Part shown: positions 12,552 through 31,540 of the stretch, in pieces
Position numbering within the stretch: the stretch's first letter is position 1
How the letters are laid out: every line of letters begins with the position of its first letter
From: Candidatus Acetothermia bacterium
GTDB taxonomy: Bacteria; Bipolaricaulota; Bipolaricaulia; RBG-16-55-9; DRXL01
Direction of reading: 5' to 3'
NCBI GenBank assembly: GCA_016179105.1
Contig: JACOSB010000120.1
Span: 489-64,488, forward strand
Length of the DNA: 64,000 nt
Made by a program: the position numbers and the translations under genes
The notes under the pieces: model-generated
Told to the model about the DNA's origin: nothing
The model's database searches: none
What the model saw: only the letters and a program-made list of their open reading frames with translations

Positions 12552-12779
12552 ATGTCTGAGCAAACGATCACCCAGACAAAGGAGTGGAAGCCGATGAGCT
12601 TTATCGTGCGATTTCACCCGGCTCTGCCGGACGGTCAAGAGGACTGGCGCGGCCAGGTCGAGCATGTGCAGACGGGCGAGAAGCGTCCCTTTCGCGGAGC
12701 GCAGCAGCTTATGCAAATCATGGAAAGTTTCTTTGAGCTTGAAGCGAAAGAACTGAATACCGAGGAGGTAAGGCCATGA
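12552..12779 (+). CDS. small hypothetical protein (62-75 aa) translationally coupled to the first fibre gene
   Basis: Its stop overlaps the ATG at 12776 (ATGA). An internal start with an AAGGAG RBS exists at 12591. No recognisable domain. Confidence 0.4.
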   Translation: MSEQTITQTKEWKPMSFIVRFHPALPDGQEDWRGQVEHVQTGEKRPFRGAQQLMQIMESFFELEAKELNTEEVRP

Positions 12780-12805
12780 ACATTCGGAACTTAAAGGAGC
12801 CGGTG

Positions 12806-14326: not shown

Positions 14327-14344
14327 GCGTATTCACTAAAACTC

Positions 14345-14364
14345 CCCGCTTTACTGAAAGCGGG
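14345..14364 (+). terminator. perfect 8-bp stem hairpin (cccgcttt-actg-aaagcggg) between fibre genes, possible attenuator/processing site
   Basis: Seen directly in the sequence. There is no U-tract, so probably not a strong intrinsic terminator. Confidence 0.25.
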
Positions 14365-14383
14365 CAATTCCTAAGGAGGAATC

Positions 14384-15163
14384 ATGAATCGTTTCTTAAC
14401 GTTAACGGCTGTGGCGTTCGTTGGCGTGGTGATTTGCGTTGGATCGGCTCAGGCTCAGAACACCATTGTGAAAGTCAATTTTCAATACGCGGTCAAGTTT
14501 GTCTGTGGCCAGAGTGCAGAAGACCATTTACAGGCAGTCAAGGGGATTTACACGACAGCGGTGAACGTGCACAATCCGGGTGTGTTTAACGCGGTCTTCG
14601 CTGAGAAAATAGCCATCGCGCGCCCTCAAGAAATAGCTGGACCCATTTCGAAATTCCGATTATCTCAATTGCCATCGGATGCCGCCTTCGAACTAACTTG
14701 CGAGGAGTTTTCCTCAGATACACAGACCAAATTTGTCACCGGTTTTCTGGTGATCGAAAGCCCTGTGGAACTGGATATCACAGCGGTTTACACCGCCCGA
14801 CCGAGTGATGGCGAGGTCAGCACGATCGACGTAGAAACCATCGCATCTCGTAAGGTGCGCCTCACACTATCGGTCGAGCCAGGGCCACAAGCGGACATCT
14901 CTCTGGTTAACAGCCACGGGCAGTTACACTTTAATGTGATGGGTTTGGAGTGGCAAGTTCAGTCCACAGCGTTGTCTGTCTTTGATTTACAAGGAAAGAT
15001 CGTCTACACGTCGGGCAACATCCAAGGCGCTGCACTAAACTGGAATTTCACTGCGACGAATGGACGAGCGGTGGCCAACGGTGTCTACCTGGCAGTGATT
15101 ACCGCCAGAGGCAAACTAGGTCAGCTGATCACTTCGACGCGAAAAATTGCAGTTTCTCGTTAA
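14384..15163 (+). CDS. secreted protein with C-terminal FlgD-Ig/T9SS-CTD-like beta-sandwich (GVYLAVITA motif)
   Basis: Good RBS (aaggagg). Signal peptide MNRFLTLTAVAFVGVVICVGSAQA. The C-terminal ~70 aa align with the Ig-like module of neighbouring genes. Confidence 0.6.
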   Translation: MNRFLTLTAVAFVGVVICVGSAQAQNTIVKVNFQYAVKFVCGQSAEDHLQAVKGIYTTAVNVHNPGVFNAVFAEKIAIARPQEIAGPISKFRLSQLPSDAAFELTCEEFSSDTQTKFVTGFLVIESPVELDITAVYTARPSDGEVSTIDVETIASRKVRLTLSVEPGPQADISLVNSHGQLHFNVMGLEWQVQSTALSVFDLQGKIVYTSGNIQGAALNWNFTATNGRAVANGVYLAVITARGKLGQLITSTRKIAVSR

Positions 15164-15221
15164 GCACACGGGTGAGCGTTGTGTCGAAAATAATACTTTA
15201 CTAGACGATAAGGAGGTCGCC

Positions 15222-17038
15222 ATGACGCATGTACGCGGAGTTGGTATCTGGCTGGCTGGGTTCGTCCTGGCACTCAGCAGTATGGCCACAACAAGTTGGG
15301 CGGCAGGCCAAGGACCATCCTTCAGCGTCCTTGTCGAGGAGCAAGCTTCAGGGTATCGCTTCTCGGTTCAAGCAGAGGACGTCACTTCAGTTCGGGTCGC
15401 CATCTTGCGCCTGGATGGTCGACGGGTCTTCCAGAGCGATTGGATCGTGGGTCCTACAGTCACCTGGCCGCTCGCAACATCATCCAATCAGACTCCCGCC
15501 CGCGGAGTCTATCTGTACGCGGTGAGCGCTCGCGATCAACACGACCGTGAGCAACGCAAACTGGGCAAGTTGGTCGTTTCCTTCGGAGCGGAGTCCTCAC
15601 TGAGCCTGCCTAGCTTGGACCAGTTAGCAGGGAGTCAGCCTTCGGCCCTTCCCAGCGGAGTGAAGTGGAAAGAGCTTTTAGGCAAAGACAGTTTGGACAA
15701 TTTCCGCATCCAGCGCCAGCCTGGCAAAGGGCAAGCTTTCCAAAACTTGCTCACGCTGGACAATGCCGGGAATTTGAGCGTGGCGCAACTCTGCTTGAGT
15801 GAAGTCTGCCTCGCGAGCTGGCCTAGTGGGGGAGGAGGCACTTTCACGTTAGCAGATGGGTCCGTCACGTTAGCCAAGCTGGCGAACCAGGACTGCGGGG
15901 CGGGCAACGCGATCCGGGGCTGGACCGGTGGAGTGTGCTGAACTGTGCCAGTCTTGGGGGCGGAGGGACACCCAGTGGCTGGGTCGATGACGGTACAGTC
16001 GTACGGTTGGCAGACGCAACAGACAAGGTCGGCATCGGGACGACGGGACCACAAAACTTACTAACTATCGGTCCAAATCCATCTGCTGCCTCCAATGCGA
16101 ATGAATTATTACAGTTGGCAAAGAACGAAGACGCATATATGACGATACGAGATGGAACTGCTACTGCTCTTTTGGGCACTACTAGCGGTCTTCCCTTCGT
16201 TGGTAGCCAATCGAATCATGACTTTACCATTCGCACGAACAATGCAGAGAAGGTCAGGATTACAACAAGCGGCAACGTCGGCATCGGGACTATTAGCCCC
16301 AATACGCGGTTGGAAGTGCAAGGCCCGGATACAAATCTTGACACGAAAGCCTTCAAGGTTAGCAACTCAATTGGCTTTGCCGGGTTGATCGTTTGGGACG
16401 ACGGAACTGTGCAAATCGGGACCCTTGTCGACAACCCGAAGACACAACATGCTTGCCTGACCCTCGGACTTTATTTCGCCACGTGCAGTTCCGCCGCCGA
16501 GTATGTTCCCACTGTTGATGAAGGACAGGGTTATCCCATCGCGGGTGATTTAGTCAGTATCGCGCCCACCCTCAAGAATCCGTATAGCGATGATCACGGT
16601 CCCTTCGTGGTCGCCAAGACGAACAAGCCCTGCGACGAGAATCTAATCGGATTTATTCTCGACCCCAAGTTGGGTGCTGACGGCAAGAAACTCAACGAGC
16701 ACTATATGCCGCTCGGCATCTACGGCTACTTCCCTGCGAAAGTCACGATGGAGAATGGGCCTATTAAGCGCGGCGATCCGATCACGTCCAGTTCCAAACC
16801 CGGCTACGGGATGAAAGCGACGCAAGCCTGCAAGATCATCGGCTATGCGCTCGAAGACGCGGACAAAGAAGGTACGATTCAAGTCTTCGCGCATCTGAGC
16901 GAGAATGCCGCACCGGAAGTGACGGCGCTGCGTGCGAAAGTGAGCGAATTAGAGCAAGCAAGAGCTCAGGAGAACGAGGAGTTCCGCAAGAGAATCGAGA
17001 CGCTAGAGAAGATCGTAGCAAGGCTCACGGCTAAGTGA
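15222..17038 (+). pseudogene. fibre-family protein (type I N-terminal Ig-like domain + IGTTxP repeats + family-A C-terminal domain + coiled coil) interrupted by a frameshift at ~15931-15941
   Basis: ORFs 15147..15941 and 15935..17038 are collinear with the intact paralog 17933..19756. The paralog has GWTGGVLNCISVGGGG; here GWTGGVC* is followed by LNCASLGGGG in another frame. Nucleotide alignment shows 2 extra nt (gtgtGCtgaactg vs gtgttgaactg). Confidence 0.6.
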
Positions 17039-17065
17039 TGTGAATGGCTTCGGGGCTTGGTGGGA

Positions 17066-17518
17066 TCATTGCGACTCGGCAAGCCCCCACATGCCCAGCC
17101 ACTGTATCCGTTTGGCTAGCGGCGCGTGACTCAAAGCTTTCACCAGCCGTTGGTCCGCCGTGATGAAGACCGCATCGCGCTGCTCAGCCAATGCCACATA
17201 CAAAGCATCGTAGACGCTGCGCTGGTAAACCCGAGCAATCTCCCAGGCGCTCTCCACAAGGGAAAGCGACGCATACAGCTGAATCGGAAAGGAAGTACGA
17301 ATATGACCAAGAACCTGCTGCACCTCCGACGGTGCAAGCTCCCCGAGCCTGTGCTTCTTCCAAAGGATATTGCCCAACTCGGCCACAATCAGATCTGGCG
17401 CGAGCAGACGGCTGTCCTCCTCGGCAGCGGCTTCCAAAAATTGTTCGGCTTGGCCGGAGAGAACTTCCGGCAGATACCATTTGATCGCCACGCTGGCATC
17501 CACGACGAAGCGCTTCAT
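17066..17518 (-). CDS. vapC: PIN-domain toxin VapC
   Basis: MKRFVVDASVAIKWYLPE... carries the conserved acidic residues of a PIN domain. Overlaps the upstream antitoxin stop by 4 nt. Confidence 0.8.
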   Translation of the reverse strand: MKRFVVDASVAIKWYLPEVLSGQAEQFLEAAAEEDSRLLAPDLIVAELGNILWKKHRLGELAPSEVQQVLGHIRTSFPIQLYASLSLVESAWEIARVYQRSVYDALYVALAEQRDAVFITADQRLVKALSHAPLAKRIQWLGMWGLAESQ

Positions 17519-17751
17519 CGGCGGCGGTCCTCGCGCAGCAAGTGGACGCTGTCGCTGAAGGTGCGGCCGGAGCGGGTGAGCTTGCGGCGGAGTCGGCGGG
17601 TGCCGGCGAGCGCCTCGTGGGCCGAATGTTTTACGGAATCTTCCAAGATCGCTCTCAACTCTTGTTGGAGCGAGCGATGCTGTCGGATGGCACGTTCTTT
17701 GAGAGTCTTCAGCACCTTGTCGGGTACATCACGTATTAAGATATTGGGCAC
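17515..17751 (-). CDS. vapB: VapB-type antitoxin (ribbon-helix-helix/FitA-like), probable GTG start
   Basis: N-terminus (M)PNILIRDVPDKVLKTLKERAIRQHRSLQQELRAIL is a typical RHH antitoxin. AAAGGA RBS sits 8 nt upstream of the GTG. The longer ATG-initiated ORF (to 17808) is also possible. Confidence 0.6.
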   Translation of the reverse strand: MPNILIRDVPDKVLKTLKERAIRQHRSLQQELRAILEDSVKHSAHEALAGTRRLRRKLTRSGRTFSDSVHLLREDRRR

Positions 17752-17769
17752 AGTAGGATTCCTTTCTGA

Positions 17770-17786
17770 TGCTATCACAATGATAG
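17770..17786. promoter_or_regulatory. perfect inverted repeat GCTATCA-caa-TGATAGC immediately upstream of vapB, candidate autoregulatory operator
   Basis: Seen directly in the sequence. TA operons are typically autorepressed via palindromes at the promoter. Confidence 0.4.
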
Positions 17787-17806
17787 CAAAGGCTTCTATG
17801 GGGAGC

Positions 17807-17913
17807 AAAGAACCAATCCATCGCCAGCGGAGTTTATCTGTATCGACTCACCCCGCGCGATCGAGACGGCAATGAAACTCAGAGCGAGCTACGCAAGCTC
17901 ATCATCTTAAAGT
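17807..17913 (+). pseudogene. 3' remnant (last ~35 codons) of a beta-helix/Ig-like paralog of gene 12806..14326, truncated by the vapBC insertion
   Basis: Nucleotide and protein match to 14208..14326. Remnant KNQSIASGVYLYRLTPRDRDGNETQSELRKLIILK* versus KDQSVAKGVYLYRLTARDRDGNEIHSELRKLIIENFFE*. Confidence 0.6.
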
Positions 17914-17932
17914 AAACCAAAGGAGGTACACC

Positions 17933-19756
17933 ATGGCGCGTGTACGCAGAATCAGCATCTTATTGGCTGGGTTCGTCTTGGCACTCAGTAGTGTGAGCAC
18001 GACAACCGGGGCAGCAGATCCAGCAGCATCCTTCAATGTCCTCGTCGAGGAGCAAGCCTCCGAGTATCGCTTCTCGGTTCAAGCAGAGGGCGTAACTTCA
18101 GTGCGGGTCGCTATCTTGCGCTTGGATGGTCGACAGGTCTTTCAGAGCGATTGGGTCGCGGGTCAGACGGTTATCTGGTCACTTGCTACATCATCAAACC
18201 AGACTCCTACCAATGGAGTCTATCTGTACGCGGTGAGCGCTCGCGATCATCAGGGCCGTGAGCAACGCAAACTGGGTAAGCTGGTCGTTTTCTTCGGAGC
18301 GGAGTCCTCACTGAGCCTGCCTAGCTTGGACCAGTTAGCAGGGAGTCAGCCTTCGGCGCTTCCCAGCGGAGTGAAATGGCAAGAGAAATTGGGCAAAGAT
18401 AGCGTGGATAATTTTCGGATTCAGCGTCAGCCTGGCAAAGGACAGTCTTTCCAGAATTTGCTCATGCTGGACAATGCCGGAAATTTGAGCGTGGCGCAAC
18501 TCTGCTTGAGTGGAGTCTGCTTCGCCAGCTGGCCGAGTGGCGGAGGAGGAACCTTCACGTTAGCAGATGGGTCCGTCACTTTAGCCAAGCTGGCGAACCA
18601 GGACTGCGGAGCGGGCAATGCGATCCGGGGCTGGACCGGTGGCGTGTTGAACTGCATCAGTGTCGGAGGTGGGGGAGGAGTGCCCAGCGGCTGGGTCGAT
18701 GATGGCACGGTCGTACGGTTGGCTAATGCGACGGAGAGTGTCGGAATCGGCACAAACATACCTACGTCACTCTTGCACTTGCGCAAGGACGTGCCGGCGG
18801 GCCTCGGTCCAACGCTGACCTTGTACAATGGCGGCGGCAGCGGAGGTGCGGCGGACTCCATAGACTTTTTCACCTACTCGTCCCCCACCCCAACTTCGCC
18901 CACGGCTCGGATCATGAGCATTGATGACGGCAGCTTCAGTAATCACCTGGCATTTTTCACCAGGATTCCAGGGGACAATGGCAATGCGCTGTTGGAGCGG
19001 ATGCGGATCGCTTCGAACGGCGATGTCGGCATTACTGGCAACGTCGGCATCGGGACTACTAGCTCCCCTGGTCTGCGCCTGGCAGTCGTCGGCAACATCG
19101 GCAACACTAGTATCTTGGGACTGAATGTCTATAACGAAGGCTTTGTACAAATTGGCACCCTTTATGGCTCCTCCACCTTGCACGCATGTTATAGCACCAT
19201 CTTGCCTTTCGCCTTCGCCGCGTGCAGCTCGGCCGCCGAGTATGTGCCATCCATTGACAACGGTGCGGGTTTTCCCGAAACCGCCGACCTTGTAAGCATC
19301 GCGCCCGCCGTCACTAATCCTTACGGCGACACGCACGGCCCTTTCACCGTCCAGAAATCCACCATGTCGTGCGATCCGAACCTACTCGGCTTTATCGTGA
19401 AACCCGAATCGGGCGCCAACGGCAAGAAACTGAACGACCACTATCTCCCGCTCGCCATCTATGGCTACTTCCCGGCCAAAGTCACGCTGGAGAATGGGCC
19501 CATCAAGCGCGGGGATCCGATCACGTCTAGTTCCAAGCCAGGCTACGGAATGAAAGCAACGCAAGCCTGCAAGGTCATCGGCTATGCGCTCGAAGACGCA
19601 GACAAAGAAGGCACGATCCAAGTCTTCGCGCATCTGAGCGAGAATGCTGCGCCGGAAGTTGCAGCACTGCGAGCGCAGGTGCAAGAGTTGAAACAACAAT
19701 TACAACAAGTGCTCAGCCAGATAGAGACAATGAAAACCAAGGAGGGATCACGATGA
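17933..19756 (+). CDS. secreted fibre-family protein, type I N-terminal FlgD-Ig-like domain, Gly-rich/IGTTxP repeats, family-A C-terminal domain (CSSAAEYVP...KRGDPITSSSKPGYGMKATQACK) and terminal coiled coil
   Basis: RBS aaaggagg. Signal peptide. Intact counterpart of the frameshifted gene, with which it shares >85% nt identity in long stretches. Confidence 0.75.
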   Translation: MARVRRISILLAGFVLALSSVSTTTGAADPAASFNVLVEEQASEYRFSVQAEGVTSVRVAILRLDGRQVFQSDWVAGQTVIWSLATSSNQTPTNGVYLYAVSARDHQGREQRKLGKLVVFFGAESSLSLPSLDQLAGSQPSALPSGVKWQEKLGKDSVDNFRIQRQPGKGQSFQNLLMLDNAGNLSVAQLCLSGVCFASWPSGGGGTFTLADGSVTLAKLANQDCGAGNAIRGWTGGVLNCISVGGGGGVPSGWVDDGTVVRLANATESVGIGTNIPTSLLHLRKDVPAGLGPTLTLYNGGGSGGAADSIDFFTYSSPTPTSPTARIMSIDDGSFSNHLAFFTRIPGDNGNALLERMRIASNGDVGITGNVGIGTTSSPGLRLAVVGNIGNTSILGLNVYNEGFVQIGTLYGSSTLHACYSTILPFAFAACSSAAEYVPSIDNGAGFPETADLVSIAPAVTNPYGDTHGPFTVQKSTMSCDPNLLGFIVKPESGANGKKLNDHYLPLAIYGYFPAKVTLENGPIKRGDPITSSSKPGYGMKATQACKVIGYALEDADKEGTIQVFAHLSENAAPEVAALRAQVQELKQQLQQVLSQIETMKTKEGSR

Positions 19757-21894
19757 GATTCAAGAATCGACGTTGGCTCTGGGTCGTGCTGTTGCTGCTC
19801 ATGGCGGTGAGAGCAGCGGCTGGCCAAGCTGCCTCTTTCCAAGTGCAAGTCGAGCAGCAAGCCTTGGGCATCCGCTTCACCGTGCAAGACGTGAACGTCA
19901 CTTCCATGCGAGTCGAAGTCGCGGGCTTAGACGGTAGAACAATCTTTGCGAGCGGATGGAAATCAGATCGGTCGGTAACCTGGCCCATGGTCACTCCGCA
20001 AGAGCGATCAGCAGCGAACGGAGTCTATCTGTACGAGATCGTATTACGCGATCACGAGGGACGTGAGTATCGCAAACTTGGCAAGCTAGCGCTCGTGCAG
20101 GGACAAGAGCCGGCATTCAGTATGTCTACAGTGGGCGAACTCGCGGGAACAGGACCTGCAGTGGCGCAGTTTCCCCTGACCGCGGGAACGAGTTGGAGTC
20201 AACGTTTGGGTATTGATCGGTCGGACACATACCGGATTCAACGTCGTCCACCTAGAGTGACTGGAGGGCCTCCAACGACTTTTGAAAACCTGCTCCAACT
20301 CGAGGCCGATGGAAAGCTTCGCATCAAAGCACTGTGTTTGGGAACAGTCTTTGCGCCGGTGACCCCTCAGAACCCGGACAATCTTTCTAACGAAGGAGAC
20401 TGTCGCAGCAGCTGGTCCGGCGTGACTGGTGGAGGTACGACGAACGGATGGACGGATGATGGCGCGATCGTGCGCTTGGCTAACGCAACAGACAAGGTCG
20501 GCATCGGGACGACGAATCCGACTGAACTCTTAACCGTAGCCGGCAATATCGATGCGACCGGACAGAAGAGCAAGATACGATTTCAGTATGATACGTTGGC
20601 CGATCTTCCTTCTGCGGCGACCTATCATGGGATGTTCGCCCATGTGCACGCGACGGGCAAAGCCTATTTCGCCCATGCCGGGCAGTGGGTTGCGTTGGCG
20701 AATGAAGGCAGCAGCGGAGGCGCCTCTGCATGGTCGCTCTCTGGAAATAGTGGAACGAATCCCAGTACAAATTTCTTGGGAACAACCAGCAATACTGCGC
20801 TCGTCTTCCGTACAAATAACTTGGAACGAATGCGTCTCAGTGAAAATGGTAGTATCGTCATCGGAACGAACACTCCTTGCGTAGGCCAGAGGTTGCAGGT
20901 TACCAAGTTCGCTTCAGGGCTCGGCTGCCCAGCCCCAGATCTTCTTGACGTAGCTATCTTCGCGGAGAACAAAGACGGGCGTGCTGTCGTCGGTCAAAGC
21001 GCCGATGATGCAGGCATCGAAGGCATAAGCAATAGCAGCGCTGGTGTCTCCGGGCTCAGCAAAAATGGCGCGGGAGTGAAGGGCGTCAGCGGAGAGGCCA
21101 TCGACATAGGTGAGCGTGAATCAGGCGTGGGTGTAGTGGGTATTAGTGTCTCCGAGCTAGGAGCTGGTGTCCTGGGCCTCAATCTCAATGGTGGCATAGG
21201 TGTACAAGGCGAGAGTGGAAAGAATTTTGGCGTTGCTGGCAAGAGCGAAGAGAAGAGTGGGGTGCTTGGCATCAGCACAATGGAGGCGGGGGTAGCAGGT
21301 GTAAGTACTAAGAATTACGGCATTGCCGGTGGCAGTATCGAGAGCACGGGCGTGTATGGGGAAAGTCAGAACGGGACATATATATTTGAGGGTTTTGATG
21401 GAAATACCAACAACCGACGTTTTGCCGTGGAGCGGGCTACGGGAAATGTCAAAGCGTATGGCACCTTCACCGGCGGCGGCGTGGACTATGCCGATATGCT
21501 TCCCGTCACGGGCAAGCTATCCGACTATGAGCCGGGCGACGTGCTTGTCATCAGCCTGGATGGAAAGTTAACGAAATCATGGCAGCCGTATTCAACGGCG
21601 CTTGCCGGAGTCTATTCTACGAAACCTGCTTTTGTGGGTGATTCCCGCGGACTCACAGAAGATAGCCGAGCGATGGATGAAAATCTGGTTCCCGTGGCGC
21701 TCGTCGGACTCGTGCCGGTGAAAGTGAGCGCCGAGAACGGTCCGATTCATCCCGGAGATTTGCTCACAACTGCGAGTATCCCCGGACACGCGATGAAAGC
21801 CACGGACCCGAAAATTGGGACAATTCTTGGCAAGGCAATGCAGTCTCTAGAAAAAGGCACCGGCGTGATCAATGTGCTGGTGACCTTGCGCTAA
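19753..21894 (+). CDS. secreted fibre-family protein, type II N-terminal Ig-like domain, GVxG-rich repeat region, family-B C-terminal domain (YEPGDVLV...PGDLLTTASIPGHAMKAT...VLVTLR)
   Basis: Start overlaps the previous stop (ATGA). Signal peptide MRFKNRRWLWVVLLLLMAVRAAAG. The N-terminal 230 aa are paralogous to gene 21921..23804. Confidence 0.75.
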   Translation: MRFKNRRWLWVVLLLLMAVRAAAGQAASFQVQVEQQALGIRFTVQDVNVTSMRVEVAGLDGRTIFASGWKSDRSVTWPMVTPQERSAANGVYLYEIVLRDHEGREYRKLGKLALVQGQEPAFSMSTVGELAGTGPAVAQFPLTAGTSWSQRLGIDRSDTYRIQRRPPRVTGGPPTTFENLLQLEADGKLRIKALCLGTVFAPVTPQNPDNLSNEGDCRSSWSGVTGGGTTNGWTDDGAIVRLANATDKVGIGTTNPTELLTVAGNIDATGQKSKIRFQYDTLADLPSAATYHGMFAHVHATGKAYFAHAGQWVALANEGSSGGASAWSLSGNSGTNPSTNFLGTTSNTALVFRTNNLERMRLSENGSIVIGTNTPCVGQRLQVTKFASGLGCPAPDLLDVAIFAENKDGRAVVGQSADDAGIEGISNSSAGVSGLSKNGAGVKGVSGEAIDIGERESGVGVVGISVSELGAGVLGLNLNGGIGVQGESGKNFGVAGKSEEKSGVLGISTMEAGVAGVSTKNYGIAGGSIESTGVYGESQNGTYIFEGFDGNTNNRRFAVERATGNVKAYGTFTGGGVDYADMLPVTGKLSDYEPGDVLVISLDGKLTKSWQPYSTALAGVYSTKPAFVGDSRGLTEDSRAMDENLVPVALVGLVPVKVSAENGPIHPGDLLTTASIPGHAMKATDPKIGTILGKAMQSLEKGTGVINVLVTLR

Positions 21895-21920
21895 CTCAAA
21901 GTGAGAAACAGGAGGAAACA

Positions 21921-23804
21921 ATGAATCAATTCACTCATAGAGTCGTCATGGCGTTGGCAACATTCGCTCTGGCGATCGCCACGGGCAGTGTTGGAACAGT
22001 CTTGACAGCCAAGGCAGCGGAAGCGATTTCTTCTTCTTCAGTTCTGATCGAGCAACAAGCCGCGGGCGTTCGCTTCTCAGTGCAAGACGAGAGCACCGTT
22101 GCGTTGCGGCTGGAAGTCTTGAGCTTGGATGGAAGAAGAATCTTCCAGAGCGAATGGCGACCAGACAAGACCGTGGTATGGTCAGCAGCTCTCATCACTG
22201 GACAAACCGTCGCAAATGGAGTTTATCTCTACGCAATCAGCGTGCGCGACCGGGAGGGACGCGAGCAAAGAAAGCTGGGCAAGTTGGTTCTGGTGCAGGG
22301 ACTGGAGCCGCGGCTGAGCATCCCAGCAGTGAGCGAGTTGGTCACAACAGAACCCGCAGCGGCACAGTTCCCCCTTACTGCGGGAACGAGTTGGAGCCAA
22401 CGATTGGGTATTGACCGGTCAGACACGTATCGGATTCTGCGCCGACCAGCGCGTGTACCCGGTGGACCTGTCACTAGCTTCGAGCAATTGCTCCAGCTCG
22501 GAGCCAATGGAAGGCTGCACATTACAGAACTATGTTTGGGTACAGTCTTTGCTCCGTTCACTGCTCAGAACCCGGACAATCTTTCTAACGGAGGAGACTG
22601 TCGCAGCAGCTGGTCGGGTGTGACGGGTGGAGGTACGTCGAACGGATGGACGGATGATGGTGCGATCGTGCGACTGGCTACCGCGAGCGATAAGGTCGGC
22701 ATTGGCACGACCACGCCAGCACAAGCACTGGAAGTAAACGGGATTGCTTCTTTGGGAGCCCCTGGAGGAGTCTATGGATACTTGTTTGCAGCTCCCTCGC
22801 CAGGACCCTACCCAACCCTCGGGTTTAACACCTATGGGGCACCTTTCTATCTGGCAGGAGTTGCGGGATATGGTGGTATCCTCCAGTTTCAGGATGGGGA
22901 TGGAAAGCTCATTTACTATACCGGCTCGAACGTGGCTGCAGGAGCAGCACATGTCAATACCCCACGATTCGCGATAGATAAGGACGGCAACGTCGGAGTC
23001 GGCACCACCACCCCGACCGCGAAACTTTCGGTTCAGACCGGGACAGGCTTTTATGGCTTCATCCACACCGATGGCGCCATTGTTGTAGGTTCGTATGTGG
23101 GGGGCAGCGCGTCAGGTGCCGTCGGCGGGTGGCTTGGCACCAAGTCGAATCACCAACTTCACTTCTTCACCAACAACGGCCAGCCCAGCATGACGATCGA
23201 CACCGCTGGCAGAGTGGGTATCGGGACGTTCAGCCCGAGTGCCACGCTGGATGTCAACGGGGGCATCCAGGCTAATAGCTTGACGGCGCCGGCGGGTCTG
23301 TTCCTGAACGCCTCGACCGGCCGCATCGCCCTGCGGACGACGACTGGGGGGCTGTTTGCGGAGCGGATGACGATCCTGGACAACGGCAATGTCGGCATCG
23401 GCACCACCAGTCCCACAAACCCCTTACAGATGGGCAGTGGTGCATTCGTCTCCGCTGGAGGCATCTGGACCAATGCGTCAGACCGTAACCTGAAGGAGCA
23501 CTTCACTCCGGTGGACAGTTACACCGTGCTGAAGACACTGGCTGCGCTCCCCATCACCGCTTGGAATTACAAGACGGAAGGAGCTTCCATCCAGCATATT
23601 GGCCCGGTAGCGCAGGACTTCTATGCCGCGTTCAAGTTGGGACAGGACAACAAGCACATCAGCACGATTGACGCGAACGGAGTGGCACTGCTCTCGATCC
23701 AGGCGCTCTATGAGCTGAGCTTGGAGAAAGACAAACAGATCGAGGATTTGCAGCAGCGTATCGAGAAGCTGGAGAAGCTTGTGGAGATGTTGACAAAGAA
23801 ATAA
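21921..23804 (+). CDS. secreted fibre-family protein with tail-fibre-like IGTTxP beta-helical repeats and C-terminal Peptidase_S74 intramolecular chaperone (auto-processing) domain
   Basis: C-terminus SDRNLKEHFTPVDSYTVLKTLAALPITAWNYKTEGASIQHIGPVAQDFYAAF...ELSLEKDKQIEDLQQRIEKLEKL matches the chaperone-of-endosialidase/S74 consensus (SDxxxK...IGxxAQ...coiled coil). N-terminal Ig-like GVYLY domain and signal peptide are present. Confidence 0.75.
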   Translation: MNQFTHRVVMALATFALAIATGSVGTVLTAKAAEAISSSSVLIEQQAAGVRFSVQDESTVALRLEVLSLDGRRIFQSEWRPDKTVVWSAALITGQTVANGVYLYAISVRDREGREQRKLGKLVLVQGLEPRLSIPAVSELVTTEPAAAQFPLTAGTSWSQRLGIDRSDTYRILRRPARVPGGPVTSFEQLLQLGANGRLHITELCLGTVFAPFTAQNPDNLSNGGDCRSSWSGVTGGGTSNGWTDDGAIVRLATASDKVGIGTTTPAQALEVNGIASLGAPGGVYGYLFAAPSPGPYPTLGFNTYGAPFYLAGVAGYGGILQFQDGDGKLIYYTGSNVAAGAAHVNTPRFAIDKDGNVGVGTTTPTAKLSVQTGTGFYGFIHTDGAIVVGSYVGGSASGAVGGWLGTKSNHQLHFFTNNGQPSMTIDTAGRVGIGTFSPSATLDVNGGIQANSLTAPAGLFLNASTGRIALRTTTGGLFAERMTILDNGNVGIGTTSPTNPLQMGSGAFVSAGGIWTNASDRNLKEHFTPVDSYTVLKTLAALPITAWNYKTEGASIQHIGPVAQDFYAAFKLGQDNKHISTIDANGVALLSIQALYELSLEKDKQIEDLQQRIEKLEKLVEMLTKK

Positions 23805-23870
23805 GTGAGGCTTCAGAGAACAAGAGCTGAGATGAGAAGGGCCGGGCAGCGTTCGCTTGGCCCTGTTTGC

Positions 23871-23898
23871 GTAGGGGCGAGGCATGCCTCGCCCCTAC
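23871..23898. repeat. GTAGGGGCGAGG-catg-CCTCGCCCCTAC palindromic element (bidirectional terminator-like) between convergent genes
   Basis: Perfect 12-bp stem hairpin; member of the family also at 10564, 31571, 32798, 40419 and 51377. Confidence 0.6.
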
Positions 23899-23906
23899 GG
23901 GACCAA

Positions 23907-26900
23907 TCATTCTGTGCTCGTGTCTAACGCATACTCGATCGCCTGCTCGAGCGTCAGTGATTGACCTTGGGTCCAGGCAGCTGCAAAAACTTTCTCCTCA
24001 AGCTTCTCACGGATTGTAGCTACAGTGCGATCAAAAGCAGCGCGATTGGTCGGCGGCAAAGAAGCACGCATGGCCCCGCGCAGAGCCGCGACGGCTCCGC
24101 AAAGATGAGCAGCGCGCACAAGCTGACCTTGGGCGAGCGAAACCACTCCCGTCCCTTCGAGTAAGAACGCGATGTTCCATTTATCTCGCAACTCCCGTTG
24201 CAAGAGTAGTCCCTCTTCATAGAGCGCATGAGCGGATGCATAATCACTTTGTTTTAGGGCAACACTGCCCAGATTATTGAGAGAGTTGGCGAGGCCCGGC
24301 TTGTCTCCTAGCTCACGACGTAAAGCCAGACTTTTTTCATAGAGCGTTCGCGCTGTTTGGTAGTCCCCTTGATTCTCTGCTACACTCCCCAAGTTGTTGA
24401 ACAAATAAGAGATGGCTTGTTTGTTCCCCAACTTTGTGTTGATCTCGAGGCTCTCTTCATAGAATGCTTTGGCTTGCGTATACTCACCCTGGGCTCGCGC
24501 GATGAGCCCTAAATTGTTGAGCAAGATAGCAATGCCGGCGGCGTCTCCTAATTTACGAGAGAGATTCAAGCCCTCCTCAGAGAGGGAGCGCGCCCGTGTA
24601 TACTCACCCTGCTTCCAGGCGATCGACCCCAAATTCTGAAGAGTTTTTGCCATGTCTCTCTCGCCTCCCAGACCTCGAAAGATCGCTAGACTTTCTTCGT
24701 GATAAGAACGTGCTGTGAGATAATCTCCTTGTCCTTCAGCCAGAGTGCCGGCCGCGTTGAGCGCCTTGGCACTCGTGATAGTCCTCTTGAGACTCCCGGC
24801 CTGTGCAAGGACAGAAGCCACTTGTGATCGCCCTTCTGTGAGATAGCCGCGAACAAGCCAGAAAGCACTGAGTGCGGTTACCATGCGCAACCCAGCTTCC
24901 GTTTTTCTTCTATCTTTGGCATATTCGAGTGCACTGCGCAGATTGTCTTGCTCTTGCTCCAATCGCTCCAGCCAGCTGGATTGAGCGGGCCCCTGCAGTT
25001 CGGACTCTGCTTTTTCTGCCAGAGCAAGGAACCAATCAAGATGGCGCTCGCGCAAGACCGATTCTTCTTTGGAATCAAGAAGTTTCTCCCGACCGAACTG
25101 GCGCACGGTCTCTAGCAGGCGATACCGTGTCTCTCCGTCTCGCTGATCCACAAGCACTAGCGACTTGTCTATGAGGTGAGTCAGTAAATCCAAAATTTCT
25201 GTAAGGGCGATTCGTGAATCGCCCTTACGAAGATCATCTCTTGCACAGATCGTCTCTACGGCCTCCAACGTAAACCCGCCCGCGAAGATAGACAACCTGC
25301 GCAGCAATGTTTGCTCAGCGGATGAGAGCAGATCGTAGCTCCAGTCCATCGCAGCCTGTAGAGTTTGTTGTCGCGGAAGCGCCGTCCGGCTGCCGCTCGT
25401 GAGCAACCGGAAGCGATCGTCCAGCCGCGCCGCGATCTCTGTGACAGACAAAACTTTCACGCGTGCCGCCGCGAGCTCGATGGCCAAGGGCAAGCCATCC
25501 AGCTTCTGGCAGATCTGCATCACCGCAGGGGCATTTTGTAGGTTCAATCCAAATTCCGGTTGACTAGAGAGTGCCCGCTCGACGAATAAGCTTATAGCTT
25601 CGTATTGTTTTAAAATCTTCAAAGGCAAGGAATCGTGAGCGTCGGGCTGCACGAGCGGAGGCACTTGCCAAACCGTCTCTCCTGCGATGCCCAGCGCCTC
25701 ACGGCTCGTGGCCAAGACCTGAAGATCTGGGCAGGTGTGCAATAGAGTCTCTGTCATGTGCGCACAGGCACTGATCAAGTGCTCACAATTGTCTAGAACC
25801 AGGAGCATTTGTTTGGATTTTAGATAGTCTGAGAGTGCGTCTGTCAACGAACATTGCTGTGTCTCGCGCACTCCCAAGGCAGACGCGATGGCTTGCGGGA
25901 CGAGCTTTGGGTCGGAGATGGATGCCAATTCTACCCACCAGACTCCATCCGAGTAGTCTTTCACCATACTTGCGGAAACTTGCAACGCGAGGCGTGTCTT
26001 GCCGCTGCCCCCGGCTCCAGTGAGAGTAAGTAATCTCGTCGTGTTGAGTAACCATTTCACTTTGACAATCTCGCGCTCGCGCCCGATGAAGCTGGTCACA
26101 GAGCTGGGCAGATTGTGCCGTGCCGGACTCGCGGGCGGCGGGTAGCCTTGGCTGGAACGCTCTCCACGCACAATCTGCTCGTGCAATGTGCACGTCTCGG
26201 GCGACGGTTTTGCACTCAAGTGCTCTTCCATTACTTTGGCACACTCGGCATAAACTTGCAGTGCTTCGCTGTGCTGCCCTGCGAGCGAGTGATAGAGCAT
26301 CTGCTGGCGATAGACGCTCTCGCGTGTGAGCTCTTGTTTCAAGATTTTTCCGCATTGTTCGAGTGCTTGTGGATACTGCCCCAGACGCGCATGGCATTCG
26401 GCGCATTGCGAAAGCGCGGTCAGATAGAGCTCTCGCCAATGTTGACGCGGGCTGAGCGTCCACTCTTCATAAAGGTCTTCGGCCAAGAAATCACCCTGAT
26501 AGAGATCGAGAGCTTGGCGATATGTGTCCAATGCTTCCGGCCAGCGCCCGGCTCGTTCTGAGGCTTGGGCAGTCTCCATCTTCTTTTGGAATTCTTCGGT
26601 GTCGAGCCAACAGGAAGAATCTTTGCTAAAAGAATATCCACCCTGGCGCTTACTCACGATGTAGTGTGAGTCCAAGCTCTTGTCAAGATTAGGCTCTAAT
26701 GCGTGGCGCAGTTCTCCGATGCGTCCGTAGAGATTCTTCGCGGCTTTCGCGGGCTCAAGGTCGGGAAAGAGTGCTTCGATCAGTTGGTCCGGGCTGAAGA
26801 TTTTTCCCCGGTCGGTGAGCAGGATTTTCAAGAGCGACAACGTCTTGTGGCGCCCCCAGGCTTGGGCAGGGACGAGCGCATCCTCACGCCAGACTTCAAA

Positions 26901-26978
26901 GCGACCAAACAGCTTGACCCGGAGTCCTTTGGTGCTCGTCCCGCTCATGAGATACTCCCATCGCCCTGCTGCGCTCAT
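23907..26978 (-). CDS. AfsR/SARP-family STAND transcriptional regulator (wHTH + BTAD + NB-ARC ATPase + TPR array), paralog B
   Basis: Collinear with paralog A at about 45-50% identity. Walker A LTGAGGSGKTRLALQV. At least 8 C-terminal TPR repeats (QGEYxxA...EESLxI...LGN). Divergent from fibre genes 27089 onward. Confidence 0.8.
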   Translation of the reverse strand: MSAAGRWEYLMSGTSTKGLRVKLFGRFEVWREDALVPAQAWGRHKTLSLLKILLTDRGKIFSPDQLIEALFPDLEPAKAAKNLYGRIGELRHALEPNLDKSLDSHYIVSKRQGGYSFSKDSSCWLDTEEFQKKMETAQASERAGRWPEALDTYRQALDLYQGDFLAEDLYEEWTLSPRQHWRELYLTALSQCAECHARLGQYPQALEQCGKILKQELTRESVYRQQMLYHSLAGQHSEALQVYAECAKVMEEHLSAKPSPETCTLHEQIVRGERSSQGYPPPASPARHNLPSSVTSFIGREREIVKVKWLLNTTRLLTLTGAGGSGKTRLALQVSASMVKDYSDGVWWVELASISDPKLVPQAIASALGVRETQQCSLTDALSDYLKSKQMLLVLDNCEHLISACAHMTETLLHTCPDLQVLATSREALGIAGETVWQVPPLVQPDAHDSLPLKILKQYEAISLFVERALSSQPEFGLNLQNAPAVMQICQKLDGLPLAIELAAARVKVLSVTEIAARLDDRFRLLTSGSRTALPRQQTLQAAMDWSYDLLSSAEQTLLRRLSIFAGGFTLEAVETICARDDLRKGDSRIALTEILDLLTHLIDKSLVLVDQRDGETRYRLLETVRQFGREKLLDSKEESVLRERHLDWFLALAEKAESELQGPAQSSWLERLEQEQDNLRSALEYAKDRRKTEAGLRMVTALSAFWLVRGYLTEGRSQVASVLAQAGSLKRTITSAKALNAAGTLAEGQGDYLTARSYHEESLAIFRGLGGERDMAKTLQNLGSIAWKQGEYTRARSLSEEGLNLSRKLGDAAGIAILLNNLGLIARAQGEYTQAKAFYEESLEINTKLGNKQAISYLFNNLGSVAENQGDYQTARTLYEKSLALRRELGDKPGLANSLNNLGSVALKQSDYASAHALYEEGLLLQRELRDKWNIAFLLEGTGVVSLAQGQLVRAAHLCGAVAALRGAMRASLPPTNRAAFDRTVATIREKLEEKVFAAAWTQGQSLTLEQAIEYALDTSTE

Positions 26979-27088
26979 TATACGCCAGTTTGCTCGAAAT
27001 CGCCGCCATCCGGAAGAAGGGTGTGACCTAACTGTAACCTTCTTCTTCTATGCTCAATGCAATGGAGAAATCCCAAGGAGGGATCAAG

Positions 27089-29227
27089 ATGAACGTCAAG
27101 AATTCACTGAAGCTCTTGGTCGTCCTGTCGCTGTTAGCTTTCTCAACAGCGGTGGCAGCTCAACCGGTGTCGTCGTTCCACGTGTTTGTGGAAAAACAAG
27201 CTTCCAATTATTTCTTCTCAGTGCAGGGAGAGAACGTCGCGTCCACACGAGTGGAGGTTTTGGGTCTAAACGGTAGGCCGATCTTTGATAGCGGATGGAT
27301 ACTGGGGCAGACGGTGGCTTGGCCGCTGATGACTCTTAATGGGCAACCTGCCGCCAATGGAGTCTATCTCTATGCAATCAGCGTAAGAGATCAGCAGGGT
27401 AAGGAACAGCGCAAGCTGGGCAAACTGGCAATCGTGCAGGGGCTGAAGCTGTTGTTGAGCACGCCTGACGTGGACGATCTGGTTCAGGTCCAGCCGATGG
27501 CTTCGGGGGCGCAATGGAAAGAGCGTCTGGCAAAGGATGGACAAGATAATTTTCGGATTCTGCGCAATGGTGCTGCGCTACTGACCCTGGACAGTAGCAG
27601 CCGACTGACGGTGGCTCAGCTTTGCTTGGCGGGAGATTGTCGCAACGTCTGGCCCGCAGGCGGAGGTCCCACTCTCGCCTGGTTGCTCAGCGGCAACGCG
27701 GGTACCACGGCAGGCACGAACTTTTTGGGAACTACGGACAATGTCGCTCTGGAACTGAAAGTGAACAGCCAGCGCGCGCTGCGCATTGAGCCTGGTTCGA
27801 CACCCAATCTCATCGAAGGCTTTAGCGGCAACTTTGCTGGCGCGGGCGTAGTCGGCGCCGCTATCGGCGGCGGCGGAGCCAACGGCACCAATAATCGAGT
27901 GCTCGACGATTTTAGTACGATCGGCGGGGGATTGAATAACCAGGCGGGTGATGGCAATGGATCCACAGCAGACCACGAGTTGGCGACCGTCGGCGGAGGA
28001 GCAGGCAACCAAGCCACCGGTAATAATTCTACCGTGGGTGGAGGTCTAGGGAACACTGCCAGCGGTGGTTTCTCCACGATTCCCGGGGGGATGTTCAACA
28101 CAGCCTTGGGTGATTTCAGCTTTGCCGCAGGCCGACGTGCCAAGGCTAACAATCAGGGCAGCTTCGTCTGGGCTGATAATTCAGTCGATGCTGACTTCGC
28201 TTCCACAGCAGACAATCAGTTCCTTATTCGCGCGAGTAAAGTCGGCATCGGCACGACGACGCCTGGGTATAAATTGGACGTCAACGGGGTCGGGCGCTTC
28301 CAGGGCTTAGAGGGCGGAGCGTCCAGCGGCGCAGGAGTAGAGATCCAGTATGGCAATGTGGGTGGAGCAACCCGCGGTATCGTCTTTGCGTTTGACCGGT
28401 CGGCAGGAGCTCCCCGAGATTTGCTCTTAAACCACCCCGGCGGCAATGTCGGCATTGGCACGACCAGCCCCAGTGCCGGGCTAACTGTCCGTGACGTAAA
28501 TCCCAGCGCCTTGAACTTTGTCTTTCGAATAGAAGACTCGACTGGGGCTCAACTATTCGCGGTCGACGACATCGGACGCGCAGGGACGAAAAGCGGCTTC
28601 ACCGTTGGTGCCTTCGCGCCAGCCACGACTACTCACGTTTGTCGCACCACCGCTCCGCCAAGCGGCCCGGGCATATTGGCCGAGTGTTCATCGGCAGCAG
28701 AGTATGTCCCCACTGTGGAAGATAGCAATGGATATCCCGAAACCGGAGATCTGGTGCGCGTTCTGCCCTCAGTCAAAAATCCCTTCGGAGATAAACACTC
28801 ACCTTTCGTCGTAACCAAGACCAGCAAGCCGTGCGATAGCGATCTATTGGGTTTCTTGCTCAAGCCCGAGCTGGGAGCAGATGGTCCGAAGTTGAACGAA
28901 CACTATCGGCCGCTCGCGATCTTCGGCTACTTTCCCGCCAAAGTGACTATGGAGAACGGGACTATTAAGCGAGGCGATCCGATCACGTCGAGCTCTAAGC
29001 CCGGCTACGGCATGAAAGCGACCCAAGCGTGCAAGATCATCGGTTATGCGCTCGAAGATGCAGATAGAGAAGGAACGATTCAGATCTTCGCGCACTTGAG
29101 CGAGAGTGCAGCGCCGGAAGTGACGGCGCTCCGAGCGCAAGTGCAAGAGCTGCACCAACAATTGCAACAAGTACTGAGCCAGTTGGATGCGATCAAAGCC
29201 AAGGTAGGGTCAACACCGATAAAGTAA
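27089..29227 (+). CDS. secreted fibre-family protein, type III N-terminal Ig-like domain, YadA-head/Hep_Hag-like Gly-rich repeats, family-A C-terminal domain and coiled coil
   Basis: RBS aaggaggg 6 nt before the ATG at 27089 (the ORF could also start at 27050). Signal peptide MNVKNSLKLLVVLSLLAFSTAVAA. Its C-terminus is near-identical at nucleotide level to those of genes 15222..17038 and 17933..19756. Confidence 0.75.
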   Translation: MNVKNSLKLLVVLSLLAFSTAVAAQPVSSFHVFVEKQASNYFFSVQGENVASTRVEVLGLNGRPIFDSGWILGQTVAWPLMTLNGQPAANGVYLYAISVRDQQGKEQRKLGKLAIVQGLKLLLSTPDVDDLVQVQPMASGAQWKERLAKDGQDNFRILRNGAALLTLDSSSRLTVAQLCLAGDCRNVWPAGGGPTLAWLLSGNAGTTAGTNFLGTTDNVALELKVNSQRALRIEPGSTPNLIEGFSGNFAGAGVVGAAIGGGGANGTNNRVLDDFSTIGGGLNNQAGDGNGSTADHELATVGGGAGNQATGNNSTVGGGLGNTASGGFSTIPGGMFNTALGDFSFAAGRRAKANNQGSFVWADNSVDADFASTADNQFLIRASKVGIGTTTPGYKLDVNGVGRFQGLEGGASSGAGVEIQYGNVGGATRGIVFAFDRSAGAPRDLLLNHPGGNVGIGTTSPSAGLTVRDVNPSALNFVFRIEDSTGAQLFAVDDIGRAGTKSGFTVGAFAPATTTHVCRTTAPPSGPGILAECSSAAEYVPTVEDSNGYPETGDLVRVLPSVKNPFGDKHSPFVVTKTSKPCDSDLLGFLLKPELGADGPKLNEHYRPLAIFGYFPAKVTMENGTIKRGDPITSSSKPGYGMKATQACKIIGYALEDADREGTIQIFAHLSESAAPEVTALRAQVQELHQQLQQVLSQLDAIKAKVGSTPIK

Positions 29228-29377
29228 ACTGGAATGAAAGCAAAAAACTCACTGGGCCGGGCAAGCTCTGCTCGGCTCCTGTGATTTTCTGGTAGCTGGG
29301 TGCTGGAGCAGCTAACCTGAAGTCGAGCGATCGAGTTGGAACCAAGCGATTGGGGAAATCCCAAAGGAGGGGTCAAG

Positions 29378-31540
29378 ATGAAAGTCAAGAATTCACTCAA
29401 GTTGTGGGTCGTCCTGTCGCTGTTAGCCGTTTCGACAGCAGTGGCCGCAGGACAAGCGTCGTCGTTCCAAGTGCTCGTGGAGGAGCAAGCTTCCAGTTAC
29501 CTCTTCTCGGTACAAGGAGAGAATGTCACCTCCACGCGATTGGAGATTTTGGGCTTAAACGGTAGGCCGATCTTCGACAGCGGATGGATACTGGGGCAGA
29601 CGGTGGCATGGCCGCTGGTGACTCCGACTGGACGACCCGCCGCCAATGGAGTTTATCTCTATGCGATCGGCGTGCGAGATCAGAAGGGCAAAGAAGAGCG
29701 CAAACTGAGCAAACTGGCAATTTTTCATGAGCTACAAGCCTCACTGAGCGTTCCGAGCATAGGCGAAATATCTCAAATTGGGCCATCGGCTCTCCCGGCT
29801 GGAGTGAAGTGGCAAGAGAAGTTGGGCAAAGATAGCGTAGACAATTTTCGGATTCAGCGCCGCCCAGGCAACGGGCAGCCTTTCCAAGACTTGCTGATCC
29901 TAGACAATGCCAGTCGACTGACAGTAGCTCAGATCTGTCTGGCCGGCGACTGCCGCAACGTCTGGCCGGGAGGTGGAGGACCCACTCTGGCCTGGTTGCT
30001 CACCGGCAATGCGGGTACTACAGCGGGCACCAACTTCTTGGGCACAACCGATAACCAGCCGCTTGAGATGCGCGTGAACAACCAGCGGGCGCTGCGCATT
30101 GAGCCGAATGCGACGAGCCCCAACTGGATCGGGGGCTTCAGCGGTAACTCTGTCCGCGCGGGCGTGGCCGGTGCCACAATCGGCGGTGGCGGAAGCGGAG
30201 ATGTTGGAAGAATAAATAAAGTTTTAGAGGAATTTGGCACGGTGAGCGGAGGCTTTGACAATACAGCTGGCGCTGCCTGGGCCACCGTGGGCGGGGGCGC
30301 TGGCAACACCGCCAGCGGCACTCAGGCCACGGTGGGCGGAGGCTTTAGCAACACAGCCAGCGCTCTCGCTCTCTCGGCCACAGTGGGCGGGGGAGGGTTC
30401 AACACAGTCAGCAACGGGTATGCCACCGTGGGCGGAGGCTTCACTAACACCGCCGGCGGCCAGTTTGCCACGGTGGGCGGGGGCAAGAACAATACAGCCC
30501 CCGAGACCAGTTCCACAGTAGGTGGTGGGTTCGGCAACGGGGCAACCGGCCTAGACTCTATAGTGGGCGGAGGCAACCAAAACACGGCGGGCGCTTCTTG
30601 GGCCACCGTGGGCGGGGGCAAGATCAACACGGCTCTTGGCATCAGTTCCACTGTAGGCGGCGGCTTCTCCAATGCGGCCAGCGGCCTTGATTCCACAGTG
30701 CCCGGAGGCCACCAAAACTTCGCCCAGGGGAATTACAGTTTTGCTGCAGGGTTTAGAGCCAAAGCTAACGATCAAGGTGCTTTCGTCTGGGCCGATTCCA
30801 CCGACGCGGATTTCACCTCTACCGCGGCCAATCAGTTCAGTGTACGCGCGAACGGTGGTGCCCGCTTCATCACTCAGCTTTCTACTCCTACCTTTACTTT
30901 AGCGGCTCTCCAGGTGGAGACCGGCGCCACTGGCGGTGAAGCCGCCTGGTTGCGCATAACGAGTTCGGCCAATCCCCAACCGGTCATCAAGCTGCTCAAG
31001 CATCCGAGCGGTACCAATAACTTCCTAGAATGCAGTAATTTCGACAGCACCACCGAGACCACCAAGTGTCATATCAATAAAGATGGTGCCTTCGTGGCGG
31101 GCTCCGACTTTGCCGAATCGCTCCCAGCCAAAGACGGTAAAGCGAACTATGAGCCAGGAGATGTGCTCGTCCTCAGTGTAGATCGACCGGGAGCAGTCCA
31201 GAAGTCAAACCAGCCTTACGATCCAAGAGTGGCGGGCGTCTATTCGACACGGCCTGCGGTGCTGGGTGCCGAAAAGGGCGGAGGAGAGACGCGAGTGGAC
31301 CCTAACGAAATCCCGGTGGCCATCGTGGGGATCGTGCCCGTGAAGGTGACGGCCGAGAATGGAGAGATTCAGCCCGGCGACTTGCTGACAACGTCTAGCG
31401 TGCCCGGCTATGCCATGAAAGCGAAAGCGGTCGTAGTCAATGGGATTGCGATCTATCCCACGGGAACGATCCTGGGGAAGGCTGTGGAGCCGCTGAAAAG
31501 CGGGGCGGGTGTCATCAAAGTGTTGGTGATGCTGCGCTAG
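29378..31540 (+). CDS. secreted fibre-family protein, type III N-terminal Ig-like domain, >12 tandem ATVGGGFxNTAxG (Hep_Hag-like) repeats, family-B C-terminal domain
   Basis: RBS aaaggagggg. The signal peptide and N-terminal 220 aa are about 80% identical to gene 27089..29227. The C-terminal domain is paralogous to that of gene 19753..21894. Confidence 0.75.
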   Translation: MKVKNSLKLWVVLSLLAVSTAVAAGQASSFQVLVEEQASSYLFSVQGENVTSTRLEILGLNGRPIFDSGWILGQTVAWPLVTPTGRPAANGVYLYAIGVRDQKGKEERKLSKLAIFHELQASLSVPSIGEISQIGPSALPAGVKWQEKLGKDSVDNFRIQRRPGNGQPFQDLLILDNASRLTVAQICLAGDCRNVWPGGGGPTLAWLLTGNAGTTAGTNFLGTTDNQPLEMRVNNQRALRIEPNATSPNWIGGFSGNSVRAGVAGATIGGGGSGDVGRINKVLEEFGTVSGGFDNTAGAAWATVGGGAGNTASGTQATVGGGFSNTASALALSATVGGGGFNTVSNGYATVGGGFTNTAGGQFATVGGGKNNTAPETSSTVGGGFGNGATGLDSIVGGGNQNTAGASWATVGGGKINTALGISSTVGGGFSNAASGLDSTVPGGHQNFAQGNYSFAAGFRAKANDQGAFVWADSTDADFTSTAANQFSVRANGGARFITQLSTPTFTLAALQVETGATGGEAAWLRITSSANPQPVIKLLKHPSGTNNFLECSNFDSTTETTKCHINKDGAFVAGSDFAESLPAKDGKANYEPGDVLVLSVDRPGAVQKSNQPYDPRVAGVYSTRPAVLGAEKGGGETRVDPNEIPVAIVGIVPVKVTAENGEIQPGDLLTTSSVPGYAMKAKAVVVNGIAIYPTGTILGKAVEPLKSGAGVIKVLVMLR

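Follow-up and report, generated by a model that had tools for sequence, protein, structure and literature searches.

The stretch of 64,000 nucleotides from a Candidatus Acetothermia bacterium analysed here (the window; contig JACOSB010000120.1, positions 489 to 64,488) encodes, at 15147-31540, six paralogous secreted fibre genes, all on the + strand. One of them ends in the known chaperone domain Peptidase_S74, and the other five end in a different module, present in two types, A and B. In the reading we favour, to which we give a probability of about 0.72, this module is a compact and divergent relative of domain D4 of phi29 gp12 (Peptidase_G2), a trimerising fibre chaperone that would remove itself in type B. 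The module belongs to the second known class of fibre intramolecular chaperone, and curated models miss its compact form. Its predicted fold, its profile homology, the conservation of its junction motif, its terminal position and the mosaicism of cassettes among the paralogs carry this assignment. A candidate new domain thereby becomes an assigned one, with an annotation usable for a very large family, and the setting departs from that of the phage prototype, which acts in the cytoplasm, whereas here the chaperone would act on Sec-exported proteins outside the cell.

The C-terminal module and its two types

Type A modules terminate genes 15147-17038 (A1), 17933-19756 (A2, 607 aa) and 27050-29227 (A3), and type B modules terminate 19753-21894 (B1, 713 aa) and 29336-31540 (B2). 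The module is 135-145 aa long and starts at a conserved junction, which reads CSSAAE at nt 16484, 19223 and 28685, VDYAD at 21481 and SDFAE at 31103. Type A continues into a coiled coil of about 45 aa, and together with it extends over 16484-17035 in A1 (junction CSSAAEYVP; beta part 16484-16888, coiled coil 16889-17035), 19223-19753 in A2 (coiled coil from 19628) and 28685-29224 in A3 (coiled coil from 29090); the type B modules lie at 21481-21891 and 31103-31537. In the structural model the coiled coil is a single helix at model residues 182-213, with 10-residue blocks over the helix reaching mean pLDDT values of 84-98.

Types A and B are homologues. BLASTP aligns 76 residues of their second halves with 37% identity (E 1e-15), and the two have a common set of invariant residues; their first halves align only via profiles. 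The second half carries a strongly conserved motif of its own, VG-x-VP-x-KV-x-x-ENG-x-I-x-x-GD-x-L-x4-PG-x-AMKA. A profile search retrieved 310 short metagenomic relatives, in which the junction takes the form G-[GSA]-D-[YF]-A-E (type B) or C-S-S-A-A-E (type A). Within the full-length paralogs the module had no match above threshold in Pfam, NCBIfam or PHROGs, and searches of PDB sequences with single module sequences of either type gave nothing significant.

The sixth paralog, gene 21921-23804, carries Peptidase_S74 at 23478-23801, with PF13884 matching residues 520-571 (nt 23478-23633) at E 2.5e-10 and 40.9 bits against a cut-off of 22. Its Ser-x4-Lys motif, S520-D-R-N-L-K525, is followed by a helical tail to 23801, and has the same spacing as Ser1264/Lys1269 of T5 pb1, for which a Ser-Lys catalytic pair of an S74-type chaperone has been described (PMC4690869). 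Comparison of the unassigned module with S74 gave no match in sequence or structure, and a crude regex scan of 80 related loci gave no credible case of adjacent S74-ended paralogs. The sequence-only reading that preceded this analysis had recognised the S74 end of this gene, the different terminal module of the five other long paralogs in two homologous variants, the coiled coil behind the A variant and the absence of a database assignment, all of which hold; its estimate of about 120 aa for the module was too short.

Fold and homology with Peptidase_G2

The AlphaFold2 model of type B, built with the metagenomic relatives as alignment, is confident (pLDDT 90.3). The predicted module fold matches a fragment of gp12 D4, a pair of beta-tulips, and the later-ranked matches are capsid decoration and cement proteins. 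The literature presents domain D4 of phi29 gp12 as an intramolecular chaperone built of tandem beta-tulips (bioRxiv 10.1101/216911); once gp12 has folded, its chaperone domain is removed, and expressed chains that lack their C-termini aggregate (PMC3357383).

At the level of sequence, the type B C-terminus with its upstream residues has PF11962 (Peptidase_G2, the intramolecular chaperone (IMC) autoproteolytic cleavage domain) as its sole family-specific match, at E 9.7e-4. An hhalign comparison of 58 type B C-termini, taken from species-level genomes, with phi29 D4 and 12 PF11962 proteins reached a probability of 94.7% (E 5.6e-8, 86 columns) over the junction and the first half of the module, and a type-A-weighted alignment compared with the same set gave E 4.9e-4 with the register unchanged. 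Against the phi29 sequence alone, hhalign aligned the family in the correct register with a probability of 6%, the match being convincing only with the PF11962 alignment. Among PDB sequences, an earlier, mixed profile of the module found 8h2i_cU at SGADYAEMMEW (E 1.2e-5), and the profile of the 58 C-termini from genomes had no meaningful match. The strand that leads into the junction ('f.v...G.v.adG.f.gg', '..G.v.a.G.f.gg.aDyAE') is common to the module and the PF11962 proteins.

The predicted cleavage junction of type B

The phi29 gene 12 translation contains the cleavage site W-S691|D692-F-A-E695, and the hhalign alignments place the type B junction on these very residues. At the module boundary B2 has A-G-S|D-F-A-E, a pattern identical to that of phi29, and B1 has G-G-V|D-Y-A-D. 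The exact scissile bond can be predicted in both genes, before the Asp codon at 21484-21486 in B1 (GGV|DYADMLP) and before that at 31106-31108 in B2 (AGS|DFAESLP). Neither the junction Asp nor the Ala changes in any of 58 relatives from several phyla, and the Glu is kept in at least 90% of them; among the junctions listed, the replacement of Glu is Asp, and the residue that precedes the junction Asp varies freely. Such conservation looks like a pattern imposed by catalysis, which packing alone would not explain, and from its residues at the junction we judge type B to be, most probably, a trimerisation chaperone that removes itself. In phi29, Asp692 and Glu695 are reported to be the catalytic pair. 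The terminal position on a beta-structured fibre, which is expected of Peptidase_G2, was found in 5/5 window genes.

Two other assignments of the module have to be weighed against this evidence. The first, that it represents a genuinely new class of auto-processing or assembly module without known kin, is what the sequence-only reading had envisaged in speaking of a second class; it draws on the lack of above-threshold matches and on the empty single-sequence PDB searches reported above, but it is very improbable in view of the hhalign probability of 94.7% to PF11962 proteins and the identical S|DFAE junction, which together with the gp12 D4 fold match refute it unless the predicted fold is wrong, and which place the module in the already known gp12 D4/Peptidase_G2 class. 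The second, a lipoyl- or biotinyl-like barrel-sandwich hybrid, or else a cell-wall-binding or sorting domain, is the least probable of all. It has in its favour the loose GD-x11-MKA spacing alone and the hydrophobic helix with Arg-rich tail in which some type A relatives end, though this lies downstream of the module; the predicted fold of the module is not a barrel-sandwich, and the likeness suggested earlier is not supported.

The relationship to gp12 D4 is in better agreement with the remaining part of the sequence-only reading, its guess at a domain for C-terminal folding and auto-cleavage. Structure prediction, the check that it had proposed, points for type B to the fold of a known intramolecular chaperone, and the structural and profile homology to D4, the type B cleavage motif and the interchangeable cassettes are likewise consistent with the guess. 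Auto-cleavage is likely for type B, where the junction motif of gp12 is kept, and doubtful for type A, because Ser replaces Asp and one relative has an S74 domain downstream. The Ser/Lys/Asp catalysis that had been borrowed from S74 is not applicable, because the conserved junction residues are Asp and Glu/Asp.

Points against the assignment and the case of type A

Several observations weigh against kinship with gp12 D4 or against its extension to every copy of the module. The gathering score of PF11962 is not reached by any member (best 19 bits against 25), and only 2/64 and 3/58 relatives match this family at all. The second halves alone, compared with G2, are not significantly similar (hhalign E 0.026), and their assignment to G2 therefore comes from the structure match only. 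The module is without the long insertion of about 45-50 residues that is found between the halves in G2 proteins, and a tblastn comparison of the type B module with 50,697 phage records gave no match. Release of phi29 D4 reportedly involves ATP, to which a secreted protein would have no access. In type A, a Ser is aligned to the junction Asp in 3/3 window copies and in 9/9 metagenomic junction-bearing sequences, and the metagenomic fragment P0020 (L082:41-832) consists of a type A module, a coiled coil, Peptidase_S74 and a second coiled coil. Two giant metagenomic proteins, P0136 (1543 aa) and P0151 (1071 aa), contain the module two to four times at internal positions, with junction variants such as NYDIAEDY and SIAVEY and with long further regions after the copies.

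The order of domains in P0020 brings two unlike chaperone-type modules into tandem. The internal copies in P0136 and P0151 mean that the fold is not always a terminal, disposable unit, and these two proteins may be polyprotein-like fibres or may make structural use of the fold.

The lack of the junction Asp in type A, the S74 chaperone after the module in P0020 and the internal copies in P0136 and P0151 would also fit a module that is kin to capsid decoration proteins and stays uncleaved in the mature fibre for good, as a knob for trimerisation or a binding head at the distal end. The structure search with type A, in which 8qsy_JI ranks above gp12, and weak matches to Phage_cement_2 speak for this alternative as well, and type A is where it is most plausible. 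For type B it has to account for the Asp and the acidic residue that stand exactly where gp12 is cut and that vary little or not at all between distant phyla, with a freely changing residue ahead of the Asp, a pattern hard to explain without catalysis. The profile match to G2 proteins of proven self-cleavage is, moreover, strongest at the junction and its preceding strand. On the whole we regard permanent retention as rather unlikely.

Under the favoured kinship with gp12 D4, type A could also be a catalytic variant of the same scaffold, in which the invariant Ser beside a conserved Cys would support self-cleavage through an N-to-O (or N-to-S) acyl shift in place of the Asp/Glu mechanism, an idea that we regard as unlikely. 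In the type A relatives P0018, P0021, P0023, P0026, P0056 and P0118 the coiled coil is followed by a hydrophobic helix and an Arg-rich tail, which might anchor the protein in a membrane or serve as a sorting signal. If the acyl-shift idea were true, cleavage in these relatives would free the folded fibre from a membrane tether only after trimerisation, and type A release would be a bacterial counterpart of the use that the eukaryotic factor MYRF makes of an S74 domain.

Proposed mechanism and cassette exchange

By homology with gp12, trimerisation, a chaperone role and cleavage would be expected of the module, and the following course of events is proposed. Each paralog would be a fibre exported by Sec and presumably, as are the phage fibres that it resembles, a trimer. 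The C-terminal module would fold and trimerise first, setting the register of the three chains, and the beta-structured shaft would then zip toward the N-terminus. The type B modules of 19753-21894 and 29336-31540 would subsequently cut themselves off by hydrolysing the bond that precedes the invariant Asp in x|D-[YF]-A-[ED], much as gp12 is cut at S691|D692. In type A the same fold would be assisted by the coiled coil as an extra trimer nucleus, and with Ser in place of Asp the module may be retained in the mature fibre or be processed by a different chemistry. Between paralogs, the distal fibre tip and the chaperone would be swapped together as a cassette.

The last of these steps is suggested by the mosaic relationships within the locus. 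The N-terminal parts of neighbouring paralogs are 71-89% identical at the nucleotide level in the pairs 15147/17933, 19753/21921 and 27050/29336, whereas the C-terminal modules differ within the pairs 19753/21921 (B and S74) and 27050/29336 (A and B), and the A modules of distant genes are alike at 69-73%. In the alignment of the paralogs, similarity is lost about 100-150 residues ahead of the module, and distal tip and chaperone therefore appear to move together. Cassette exchange explains why S74, A and B occur in the same position, and it lends independent support to the argument from position, by which the three modules are equivalent in function. A single locus holds three C-terminal chaperone cassettes (S74, G2-like B and G2-like A), borne by secreted fibres that are much alike in their other parts. 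It illustrates clearly how a tip and its chaperone are exchanged together in nature, which is useful for engineering trimeric fibres.

Distribution of the module

Among 1.84 billion clusters (formed at 50% identity), the profile matched the representatives of 28,601 at E <= 1e-3, of which 22,937 also pass E <= 1e-10. The module is overwhelmingly terminal: for 145 of the 150 best representatives the match stops no more than one residue short of the C-terminus, and in 60/61 genome ORFs (open reading frames) the module is C-terminal. Species-level genomes hold at least 532 loci, mainly in Anaerolineae and other Chloroflexota, Acidobacteriota and Bacteroidota, with the closest relatives of the window modules in metagenome-assembled genomes of Anaerolineae and Binatia; isolates that carry the module include Granulicella rosea DSM 18704, Paracidobacterium acidisoli and Chitinophaga species. 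The family is mostly chromosomal, and the sources name almost all of its members 'hypothetical protein'. A Foldseek search of BFVD returned proteins of uncultured Caudovirales (best E 1.1e-13, up to 34% identity), some of the weaker matches being named preneck appendage protein.

Tandem arrays of type B-ended fibres recur across genomes: two or three adjacent paralogs with a terminal type B module stand at the loci L012 (Paracidobacterium acidisoli), L025, L031 and L032.

The fibre genes and their neighbourhood

From N- to C-terminus each paralog comprises a signal-peptide-like hydrophobic segment, an Ig-like domain, a Gly-rich repetitive shaft and the C-terminal module, as exemplified by A2 with its signal peptide, N-terminal Ig-like domain, fibre shaft and type A module. 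The shafts match phage tail-fibre PHROGs, and the Ig-like domain bears a weak resemblance to type IX secretion C-terminal domains. A1 is interrupted by a 1-nt frameshift near 15935-15941, which gives two ORFs (the downstream one at 15935-17038); the frame changes at TGGV|LNC, a stretch that is intact in the paralog 17933-19756, and A1 is either a pseudogene or the product of an assembly or sequencing error. Comparison of the upstream regions at 27073-27133, 29362-29422 and 19737-19797 revealed a conserved AAGGAGG-N6-ATG, because of which the true starts are likely to be 27089 for A3 and 29378 for B2, where the ORF list has 27050 and 29336.

The Ig-like domain of the fibres is also the C-terminal domain of an upstream beta-helix (NosD-like) protein at 12776-14326 (BLASTP E 9e-15), and it likewise ends the product of 14384-15163, a protein with a weak match to CHU_C (type IX secretion); one Ig-like domain thus stands at opposite ends of neighbouring secreted proteins, C-terminal in those of 12776-15163 and N-terminal in the six paralogs. 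The shaft of B2 contains eight copies of a repeat at 30197-30683, spaced by multiples of 45 nt (15 aa) and encoding 'ATVGGG..NTA.G..', and one copy of the same repeat occurs in gene 27050-29227 (27944-28064).

Two genes break up the cluster, one for a PIN toxin and the other for a BTAD-NB-ARC-TPR regulator. The former, encoding a PIN-domain (VapC-like) toxin, lies between two fibre paralogs at 17066-17518 on the - strand. Two large regulators with Trans_reg_C/BTAD/NB-ARC/STAND/TPR architecture, at 9127-12312 and 23907-26978, both on the - strand, flank and interrupt the cluster, and a shorter BTAD regulator (46721-47635, - strand) lies downstream of it; the BTAD-type regulators are candidate controllers of fibre expression. 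The flanking genes are chromosomal and include SNF2 and DEAD helicases, Nramp, a glycosyltransferase, PspA, STAND regulators, chromate resistance and peptidases, and no phage genes were found around the cluster in the window. A prophage origin of the locus was rejected on these grounds, and the fibres are to be regarded as cellular secreted proteins, not as a prophage tail.

Comparison with known systems

The nearest known counterpart of the module is D4 of phi29 gp12 (PF11962; PDB 3GQH, 3SUC), which is likewise found at the extreme C-terminus of a beta-structured fibre, has profile homology with the module over the junction and the first half, and has an x|D-[YF]-A-E junction identical to that of type B. 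Unlike phi29 gp12, the window genes are chromosomal and encode signal peptides, with no phage genes in the 64 kb. The module further differs from gp12 D4 in remaining below the Pfam threshold, in having no long insertion and in possessing its own second-half motif, and type A departs further, with Asp changed to Ser and with a coiled coil of about 45 aa added.

Peptidase_S74 (phage K1F endosialidase, T5 pb1, GA-1 appendage; PF13884) shares its job and its terminal position with the module and ends in a trimeric helix, as type A does, but its fold and chemistry are unrelated. The body of the phi29 chaperone is beta-stranded, whereas S74-type chaperones are elongated, with long beta-hairpin tentacles (PMC4690869).

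The beta-tulip decoration and cement proteins (the capsid stabilisation protein of HFTV1, 8qsy, the base of phi29 gp8.5, 6qyy, Phage_cement_2 PF09956) are stand-alone capsid proteins, with no fusion to a fibre, no D-x-A-E junction and no self-cleavage. Chain cU of 8h2i ('P22', 1343 aa) and PBCV NY2A B170R resemble the module in a G2-type junction, SGADYAEMMEW, and in a BFVD fold match; they differ in their eukaryotic-virus host, in the internal position of the domain within a much larger protein and in a sequence match confined to the first half. We take 8h2i to be a chlorovirus entry, the database giving the molecule name only. That gp12 D4 has homologs in PBCV-1 Vp260 and in bacterial adhesion proteins was noted by the Rossmann laboratory (cited in bioRxiv 10.1101/216911).

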